Positions 2,291 through 8,853 of a stretch of 64,000 nt of DNA are shown in pieces. The translations under genes and the position numbers were made by a program. The notes under the pieces were generated by a model. That model did not search any database. It was given only the letters and a program-made list of their open reading frames with translations, and had not been told where the DNA came from. Source of the DNA: a phage; the sequence record PZ172995.1. One strand, written 5' to 3'. Positions within the stretch are counted from its first letter, which is position 1; each line of letters begins with the position of its first letter.

Positions 2291-2305
2291 TAGAGGTAAA
2301 TTGGA

Positions 2306-2752
2306 ATGGCTATGTATCAGCAATATTCCCCTAAAGACGTTGTGTGTAGCTGGAATGGTATTGCCATTGAAGGCTTTGCCCCAGACTCATTTTTACGTCT
2401 ACAGAGAACATCACCACTTGTGACACCAGTTGTAGGTGCAGGTGGTCAAGTTGCTCTGACAAGAAATGCAGACAAGACAGGTACTATTGAGATTGAGCTA
2501 ATGCAGACTTCTCTCTCTAATCAGATGCTTTCTGCAATTCAAGCTAAACAAGACAATATGGAACTTGAAGAAGATATCTCTTCTAACTTCGTAATCTACG
2601 ACCCATCAGGCTCTGTTCTGGCAACTGGTATTAATGCTTGGTTGCAGGAACTACCACAGATTGAACTTGGTCGTGACCAGAACTCTAAAACTTGGATTTT
2701 TGGTTGTGAGAAGCTAGACTACACTTCTACAATTCCAGCGTCAAGTGTTTAA
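2306..2752 (+). CDS. putative tail tube protein
   Basis: 148 aa, between sheath-like gene and chaperones; followed by terminator; synteny only. Confidence 0.45.
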   Translation: MAMYQQYSPKDVVCSWNGIAIEGFAPDSFLRLQRTSPLVTPVVGAGGQVALTRNADKTGTIEIELMQTSLSNQMLSAIQAKQDNMELEEDISSNFVIYDPSGSVLATGINAWLQELPQIELGRDQNSKTWIFGCEKLDYTSTIPASSV

Positions 2753-2764
2753 TAAATCCTATAA

Positions 2765-2797
2765 GGGGGAGACTTTAAAAGGTCTTCCCCTTTTTTG
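2765..2797 (+). terminator. rho-independent terminator
   Basis: GGGGGAGAC...GTCTTCCCC stem followed by TTTTTTG, 13 nt after stop of 2306..2752. Confidence 0.6.
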
Positions 2798-2825
2798 TTT
2801 CTTTTAAAAGTATTAAGGAATCACA

Positions 2826-3224
2826 ATGAAAACAGAAGCTAGAGTAATTAATGGTAAGAAAGTAAATATCGTTCTGCTTGGGGCAAGAGATGGTATTAAG
2901 ATGTCTATGAAGCTGGGTAAAATTGTTGTTCCAACCTTTGCACAGATGCTGTCAAGCCTGACTGATAAAGATAAGAAAGAAGCTCCAATGGTTCCATTTA
3001 AAGAACTTGTTGAAGCTTGTTTTGACAGAATTGAAGAAATTAACCTTGAAGAAATGGCTACCCTGTTATTTCAAGGGGCAACTGTTGATGACTTCCCACT
3101 TAATATTGATACATACTTCCAAGCAAACTATGGTGAATTTATTGATTACTTAGCATTTGCGCTGGAGGCAAACTTCGGAAGTTTTTTCGAAGCAAGCATT
3201 TTCAAAAGCCTAACTTCTCAGTAA
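2826..3224 (+). CDS. tail assembly chaperone (G-like)
   Basis: 132 aa directly upstream of tape measure; contains slippery heptamer near 3' end. Confidence 0.5.
   Translation: MKTEARVINGKKVNIVLLGARDGIKMSMKLGKIVVPTFAQMLSSLTDKDKKEAPMVPFKELVEACFDRIEEINLEEMATLLFQGATVDDFPLNIDTYFQANYGEFIDYLAFALEANFGSFFEASIFKSLTSQ
3182..3188 (+). other. candidate -1 programmed ribosomal frameshift site (T TTT TTC)
   Basis: Heptamer in 0 frame of 2826..3224 (codons agt ttt ttc); -1 frame is open from here into ORF 3227..3466 with no stop. Confidence 0.45.
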
Positions 3225-3226
3225 AC

Positions 3227-3465
3227 ATGGGTAACACTCTACAGACACCACTAACTGATGCTGCTGTAGAGGCAACCTATGAAGAAGCAGACGAGATGAA
3301 ATTTGTGCTTGCTATTTATGGTATGGAAGGGTGTAAAGAAACACTTGACCAACTCTTTGCTATGACATTCTCTGATTTATTATCATTGAGACAATTTCTT
3401 GAAATTCAGAGGTCGTATAAAGAGGAAATTGCTTACAACGAACTTAGAAGAGCAGGAAAAATGTA

Positions 3466-3466
<1 letters not shown>
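3227..3466 (+). CDS. -1 frame extension of tail assembly chaperone (GT-like fusion partner)
   Basis: 79-aa ORF in -1 frame relative to 2826..3224, ends at start of tape measure. Confidence 0.4.

Positions 3467-8853
<5,387 letters not shown>

Follow-up and report, generated by a model that had tools for sequence, protein, structure and literature searches.

Two short open reading frames (ORFs), 2826..3224 and 3227..3466, follow one another upstream of the tape measure gene in the phage DNA of sequence record PZ172995.1, and the second of them raises the question of how it is expressed: as a separate protein from its own start codon, or as the C-terminal part of a fusion made by ribosomes that leave the first ORF before its stop codon and continue in the -1 frame. 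The stretch analysed is 64,000 nt long and is referred to below as the window; positions are those of the window unless another record or locus is named. A preliminary description of this DNA had favoured the second possibility, with the two ORFs giving the G and G-T products of a tail assembly chaperone pair. That interpretation is supported by the gene order, the protein family, the conservation of the site and a fusion deposited for a relative, Salmonella phage Meda, and we consider the locus to be a probable case of programmed -1 ribosomal frameshifting of the phage lambda G/G-T type (probability of about 90%, as judged from the sequence).

Organization of the tail assembly chaperone locus

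The window comes from a Felixounavirus, an E. coli myophage of the Felix O1/wV8-like type. Its bases 2300-3700 matched 300 related phage records, and over this segment the window was 99.6% identical to Escherichia phage SME50 and 98.5% identical to Salmonella phage Meda. The genes occur in the order sheath, tube, chaperone (G), -1 ORF (T) and tape measure, the gene pair in question lying between the tube and tape measure genes as in other G/G-T arrangements.

The tail sheath gene occupies 938-2290 and is followed, on the plus strand, by the tail tube gene (2306..2752, 148 aa; phrog_280, E = 1.2e-47; PF11681), the product of which is homologous to the tail tube protein gp40 of Shigella phage Sf14 (PMC11821841). 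The G-type tail assembly chaperone ORF (2826..3224, plus strand) codes in the 0 frame for 132 aa and ends with the TAA at 3222-3224; the anti-SD duplex of its own Shine-Dalgarno (SD) sequence was calculated at -6.1 kcal/mol. Its product scored 71.5 bits against PF21822 (Phage_TAC_15), for which the cut-off is 22, with residues 9-124 aligning to profile positions 1-124 of 127, and it matched phrog_1613 (tail assembly chaperone) with E = 2.7e-48. The downstream (T) ORF, as conventionally called, starts at the ATG at 3227 and has 79 aa (3227..3466, plus strand). It belongs to PHROG 4963, also named 'tail assembly chaperone', with E = 2.3e-54 over residues 135-213 of the predicted fusion. The tape measure protein gene (3466..5697, plus strand, 743 aa) was identified by phrog_4036 (1534.9 bits) and by PF20155 (TMP_3). 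A search of the PDB gave no structural relative of the fusion (best E = 0.63), and for this reason no structural inference was drawn.

Between the tube and chaperone genes, at 2763-2802, the window carries a strong intrinsic-terminator-like hairpin of 13 pairs followed by a T tract. The records of Meda, Mijalis, Mordin and wV8 label this hairpin a terminator; termination at this position would leave the chaperone and tape measure genes less transcribed than the sheath and tube genes.

A slippery heptamer in the overlap of the 0 and -1 frames

Near the end of 2826..3224 the 0-frame codons are AGT (3180-82), TTT (3183-85) and TTC (3186-88). This codon register confirms that the heptamer T TTT TTC at 3182..3188 (plus strand), noticed in the preliminary description, lies exactly in the X XXY YYZ register; in relatives it is conserved as T TTT TTY. 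The -1 frame has a TGA at 3143, stays open from 3146 until it reaches the stop at 3464-3466, and contains ORF 3227..3466. The T stop and the tape measure ATG at 3466 overlap in the sequence TAATG, so that the open -1 frame ends at the tape measure start, also as described before. Both the 0 and the -1 frames are open over 79 nt (3146..3224, plus strand), between the TGA at 3143 and the 0-frame stop at 3222, and the slippery sequence lies inside this overlap in the correct register, as is characteristic of a G/G-T pair.

The ORFs of at least 100 aa in the window comprise 18,174 codons and contain 63 in-frame X XXY YYZ heptamers; the number expected by chance in the 26-codon overlap is 0.09. Only one of the 63, that at 3182, has a -1 frame running beyond the 0-frame stop, for 92 codons. 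For the other 62 the -1 frame closes in 22 codons or fewer, inside the gene that carries the heptamer. The sequence TTTTTTC was found in frame, within the same set of ORFs, at 3182 only. In E. coli, U_UU.U_UU.Y counts as an efficient -1 motif: Sharma et al. placed H_HH.U_UU.Y in the most efficient class, and reported that U_UU.U_UU.C is under-represented in E. coli genes and is used by IS elements (PMC4066793).

According to the proposed mechanism, most ribosomes would read 2826..3224 to the TAA at 3222 and make the 132-aa chaperone. A minority would slip with tRNA-Phe on UUU in the P site and on UUC in the A site (3183-3188); both tRNAs would move back by one base and re-pair with U UUU UU, which reads UUU UUU in the -1 frame, and decoding would restart at the CGA at 3188-3190 and proceed to the stop at 3464-3466. 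The predicted fusion, previously put at roughly 210 aa, was computed as 213 aa, 121 from G and 92 from T, with C3188 read twice and the junction ...ANFGSFF|RSKHFQKPNFSVNMGNT.... Its T part would be the -1 segment after the shift (3188..3466, plus strand, including the stop codon). That slippage occurs, and with some efficiency, we infer from the sequence.

The roles of the two products are proposed by analogy with lambda, for which the accepted model has G as the part that binds the tape measure protein and T as the part that brings in the tube subunit (PMC5009743). Transferred to the present phage, this model would assign binding of the tape measure protein to G, which both products share, and recruitment of the tail tube subunit to T, and the frameshift rate would set the G:G-T ratio needed in tail assembly.

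The routes of expression predict different peptides. The Glu-C peptide across the fusion junction would be ANFGSFFRSKHFQKPNFSVNMGNTLQTPLTDAAVE, and -1 read-through would give the tryptic peptide HFQKPNFSVNMGNTLQTPLTDAAVEATYEEADEMK, which includes residues encoded upstream of the ATG at 3227; independent initiation at 3227 would give the tryptic peptide (M)GNTLQTPLTDAAVEATYEEADEMK. The T-frame peptide RSKHFQKPNFSVN is expected to be joined to G sequence in the fusion product. Proteomic evidence for the fusion was sought in the literature on Felix O1-like phages, with no relevant result.

Conservation of the site among relatives

The Felixounavirus phages Meda, ekra and pSJ21 and the Suspvirus SUSP2 all have T TTT TTC in register and a -1 frame that continues without a stop as far as the tape measure start. 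The same T TTT TTC architecture occurs in the Mooglevirus phages ESh21, Mijalis and Mordin, in Pectobacterium phage Arno18, in the Erwinia phages Coenus and Prophecy, at 43% identity of the fusion, and in the Vequintavirinae PBES 02 and Av-05, at 26-29% identity. Slip site and -1 architecture were present in every relative examined, to about 25% protein identity.

IMG/VR was scanned with the peptide pattern E[AVK]N[FY][GS][SC]FF. The 79 loci obtained fall into 20 clusters below 50% identity (single linkage at 50%). All of them (79/79) carry T TTT TTC or T TTT TTT in register; the preceding Ser or Cys codon ends in T at every locus (AGT, TCT or TGT), and 76-123 open -1 codons follow. Because the search pattern imposes Phe-Phe by construction, the test of significance was restricted to the synonymous choices, namely the use of TTT as the first Phe codon and of a codon ending in T before it. 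Local codon use gives P(TTT|Phe) = 0.43 and P(T-ending|Ser) = 0.32, and on these values a slippery site in each of the 20 clusters would arise by chance with a probability of about 6e-18. In comparison of the window with three distant Ounavirinae, third-codon-position identity was 0.93 at codons 116-125, which are centred on the slip site, and 0.39 overall. The site and the frame layout of the G/G-T type are conserved in divergent relatives, represented by these 20 clusters and by named phages of five genera or subfamilies.

At 3189-3215 the 20-27 nt immediately 3' of the heptamer (GAAGCAAGCATTTTCAAAA) are identical even in the Erwinia phages, whose proteins share only about 43% identity. The constraint of coding in two overlapping frames may account for this; alternatively, the segment may have a role at the RNA level.

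Expression of the downstream ORF

The ATG at 3227 lies two bases past the TAA of the G ORF and has no SD sequence. For the 17 nt ahead of it the calculated anti-SD duplex is +0.7 kcal/mol, as compared with -5.1 to -7.9 kcal/mol for ten neighbouring structural genes, and this duplex is weaker than that of about 89% of the ATG triplets in the window. The equivalent of 3227-3229 is ATA in two otherwise near-identical genomes, IMGVR_UViG_3300045988_004167 (L025) and MET-P1-301 (L094). The ATG of the downstream ORF is at a different position in Mooglevirus; in the Erwinia phages no start occurs in the -1 frame until 55 codons past the heptamer, and the peptide ahead of that start aligns with the T part of the window; the corresponding distance is 20-70 codons in most of the 20 clusters. 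In the family, T lacks initiation signals of its own, a start being missing for 20-70 codons in most distant relatives; in Felixounavirus, with an ATG but no SD sequence, the picture is ambiguous. Taken together, the lack of an SD sequence, the ATA variants and the shifting or missing starts indicate that frameshifting is the conserved expression route for the T segment, and initiation of ORF 3227..3466 at its own ATG is probably not the main one.

If the two ORFs were nevertheless separate genes, the 79-aa T protein would be made from the ATG at 3227 by termination-reinitiation and the heptamer would be nothing but a pair of Phe codons. The distance of two bases between the TAA and this ATG suits such coupling, most GenBank and RefSeq records carry two separate chaperone CDSs, and mass spectrometry of the particles of a relative, discussed below, detected the T-ORF product and not G. 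These points are opposed by the calculated +0.7 kcal/mol at the ATG and its replacement by ATA in L025 and MET-P1-301, and by a start that moves in Mooglevirus or is missing in most other clusters while the peptide that precedes it is conserved. In addition, a need for Phe-Phe in the protein leaves unexplained why the first Phe codon is always TTT and the codon before it always ends in T, in 20/20 clusters. As the sole route to T, separate initiation is improbable. Since the ATG follows the G stop so closely, termination-reinitiation could supply a certain amount of free T protein; as a minor route alongside frameshifting in Felixounavirus this is rather unlikely, while having an appreciable chance of being real.

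The particle data concern the Mooglevirus Shigella phage Sf14, whose chaperone locus lies at 301-938 of L014 (NC_042075). Mass spectrometry of Sf14 particles detected gp42, the homologue of the T ORF (FDI99_gp115), and did not detect gp41, the homologue of G (PMC11821841). Detection of gp42 only runs counter to production of a G-T fusion alone, which should also yield G peptides. It also sets Sf14 apart from lambda: a T-ORF product was seen in Sf14 particles, whereas both G and G-T of lambda are absent from virions (PMC5009743). One possible reason for the Sf14 result is that a contaminant of low abundance in the pelleted lysate was sampled sparsely; the supplementary files of that study hold no peptide-level data for gp41 or gp42.

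Programmed ribosomal frameshifting has also to be weighed against two explanations that do not involve the ribosome. RNA polymerase might add a U on the T6 run, so that a fraction of the mRNAs would encode the fusion in one frame. The site is indeed a homopolymer run, and length variants of it exist, T7 in phage CL1 and T4 in MET-P1-301. However, productive bacterial cases of transcriptional slippage involve about 9 A or T (PMC5009743), as opposed to a run of 6 here; the feature conserved among relatives is the X XXY YYZ register, which is relevant to tRNA re-pairing and not to the polymerase; and the MET-P1-301 variant is to be discounted in view of other homopolymer indels nearby. Transcriptional slippage is, in our judgement, highly improbable. 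The same two records bear on the possibility that the split is a sequencing or assembly error and that in reality the gene is a single uninterrupted ORF of 213 aa, as in CL1, for both are annotated with a single fused ORF. Close relatives, however, match the fusion in two pieces, as seen in a tblastn sample of 72 rows (60 spread and 12 best, from two listings with 320 matching records). The only high-identity single-piece matches among the 72 rows were CL1 and MET-P1-301, the two top-ranked records; a further single-piece row, at 65% identity and in three places of the unannotated GE_vB_BS record, falls outside this comparison. The two-frame layout recurs in 79/79 IMG/VR loci, which come from independent projects, and the split is conserved across subfamilies. 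An error in the window is extremely improbable.

CL1 (L004, OK040806) has T7 at the slip site, at 955-965, and consequently a fused chaperone ORF; MET-P1-301 (L094, PV700625) has T4 at about 656-660. Both length variants are probably sequencing errors, in the case of MET-P1-301 because other homopolymer indels nearby split its tape measure gene.

Sequences that may stimulate the frameshift

An internal SD-like sequence, GGAGG, is present at 3164..3168 (plus strand), 13 nt 5' of the slip site, and is a candidate 5' stimulator. Its calculated anti-SD duplex (-9.3 kcal/mol) is stronger than those of the true SD sequences of neighbouring genes. The Glu codon that gives GAGG is GAG in 16 of the 20 clusters, as compared with 8.1 expected (P about 2e-4), the GAGG motif itself being partly dictated by a conserved L-E-A/V peptide. 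SD-like sequences that stimulate -1 frameshifting are reported at spacings of 9-14 nt (PMC5009743). With its 13-nt spacer the GGAGG falls within the 9-14 nt seen 5' of the heptamer in the dnaX and IS cassettes, as a candidate for the same function, and pairing with 16S rRNA may allow it to stimulate the shift from the 5' side.

A check for a downstream stimulatory structure, called for in the preliminary description, gave no convincing 3' structure in single-sequence or consensus folds. The fold of 3189-3270 (-12.4 kcal/mol, z = +0.30) was no better than those of shuffled sequences, and that of the 181 nt at 3150-3330 was unremarkable (z = -1.64). Folding five relatives to a consensus gave a covariation term of +0.36, which lends no support to a structure; the helix predicted there contains the slip site itself and is partly broken in the Erwinia phage. 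A stem formed by 3191-3199 and 3305-3313 in the 181-nt fold was considered as a stimulator and rejected, as it was not recovered in the five-relative consensus fold. The stable stem-loop or pseudoknot located 5-9 nt past the heptamer in the dnaX and IS cassettes had no counterpart in these folds.

A terminator-like hairpin at 3162-3178, followed by a T tract, was treated as a chance occurrence, since two such matches were found against 1.1 expected in shuffled sequences.

Inspection by eye of the uncultivated relatives suggested structures in some of them. In one uncultivated cluster, L046-L051, a possible stem lies about 24 nt past the site, in the region about 20-50 nt after the heptamer, with ACCCC and GGGG flanking a short AGCTT/AAGCT palindrome, and apparent hairpins are seen 5-7 nt past the site in some GC-rich clusters (L053, L064). 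The stimulators may differ between lineages.

A more general proposal can be put forward tentatively. Throughout the PF21822 family, that is in Ounavirinae, Vequintavirinae and uncultivated myophages, the shift might depend on U UUU UUY together with a conserved 5' GAGG or GGAGG at a distance of 13 nt, in the manner of dnaX and IS elements, and not on a 3' structure; the T product might in addition, in contrast to lambda, be associated with the particle, for which the Sf14 mass spectrometry gives a hint. We regard this combination as possible and, taken as a whole, somewhat doubtful. If it were true, an SD-driven shift and a particle-associated T would be refinements of a known mechanism.

Comparison with known systems and existing annotation

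The gpG/gpGT pair of phage lambda was reportedly described by Levin et al. (1993) and by Xu, Hendrix and Duda (2004). The lambda G/G-T shift is not known to need a strong 3' structure. The locus in the window resembles that of lambda in having two overlapping ORFs between the major tail and tape measure genes, a -1 shift, here predicted, near the end of the first ORF, and a fusion that shares the N-terminal chaperone part with the shorter product. The two differ in that lambda is a siphovirus with the slip site G GGA AAG, whereas the present phage has a contractile tail, the site U UUU UUC, a chaperone of the PF21822 family and a candidate 5' SD-like stimulator.

The pair gpE and gpE+E' of phage P2 is said to have been described by Christie et al. 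(2002), and the P2 slip site ends in G (T TTT TTG). P2 is also a myovirus, with a chaperone pair upstream of the tape measure gene and a -1 shift on a U-rich heptamer; its chaperones belong to a different protein family. The lambda site G GGA AAG gives a product ratio of about 30:1, and a 2-3-fold higher efficiency is given for gpE+E' of P2 (PMC5009743).

The E. coli dnaX and IS cassettes are similar to the window in combining a canonical heptamer with an upstream SD-like sequence, represented here by the GGAGG. They differ in that dnaX, where shifting reaches about 50%, requires a 3' stem-loop as well, and the folds of the window showed none.

The frameshift is already known in Felix O1-like phages. 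The genome papers of the Citrobacter phages Moogle, Michonne and Mijalis report a -1 frameshift, citing Xu, Hendrix and Duda 2004 (PMC4319497, PMC4591319, PMC5543628), and the records of Mijalis and Mordin contain a joined CDS with the same frameshift. For Meda a two-piece CDS, 'tape measure chaperone frameshift product', is deposited (AXY86324.1); the Meda fusion that we derived from the T TTT TTC junction is identical to it letter for letter. The gene pair, the site and the junction are the same in Meda and in the Citrobacter phages Moogle, Michonne, Mijalis and Mordin as in the window, and nothing substantive differs. In the closest relatives, SME50, ZX4221 and JN01, and in the RefSeq Felixounavirus records, two chaperone genes are annotated and the joined product is not. 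The 213-aa fusion sequence of the window itself was missing from the protein collection searched.

The result matters mainly for annotation, given that the 213-aa fusion is omitted in the closest relatives and in RefSeq Felixounavirus. A rule calling T TTT TTY inside ...E(A/V)N(F/Y)G(S/C)FF would allow fusions to be called across the family. What is added here to the earlier reports is the candidate 5' GGAGG, the lack of a convincing 3' structure and the unannotated fusion in the nearest relatives. The locus would be one more case of the conserved G/G-T strategy by which chaperone ratios are set in tail assembly and, as a further instance of it, opens no new question.

In two rV5-like Vequintavirinae the -1 frame enters an ORF annotated only as a hypothetical protein, and the frameshift carries no annotation. 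T TTT TTC lies there in the homologous NYGCFF motif, and the -1 frame extends for about 125 codons (Cronobacter phage PBES 02, 1248-1625 of L012; Escherichia phage Av-05, 1173-1553 of L013).
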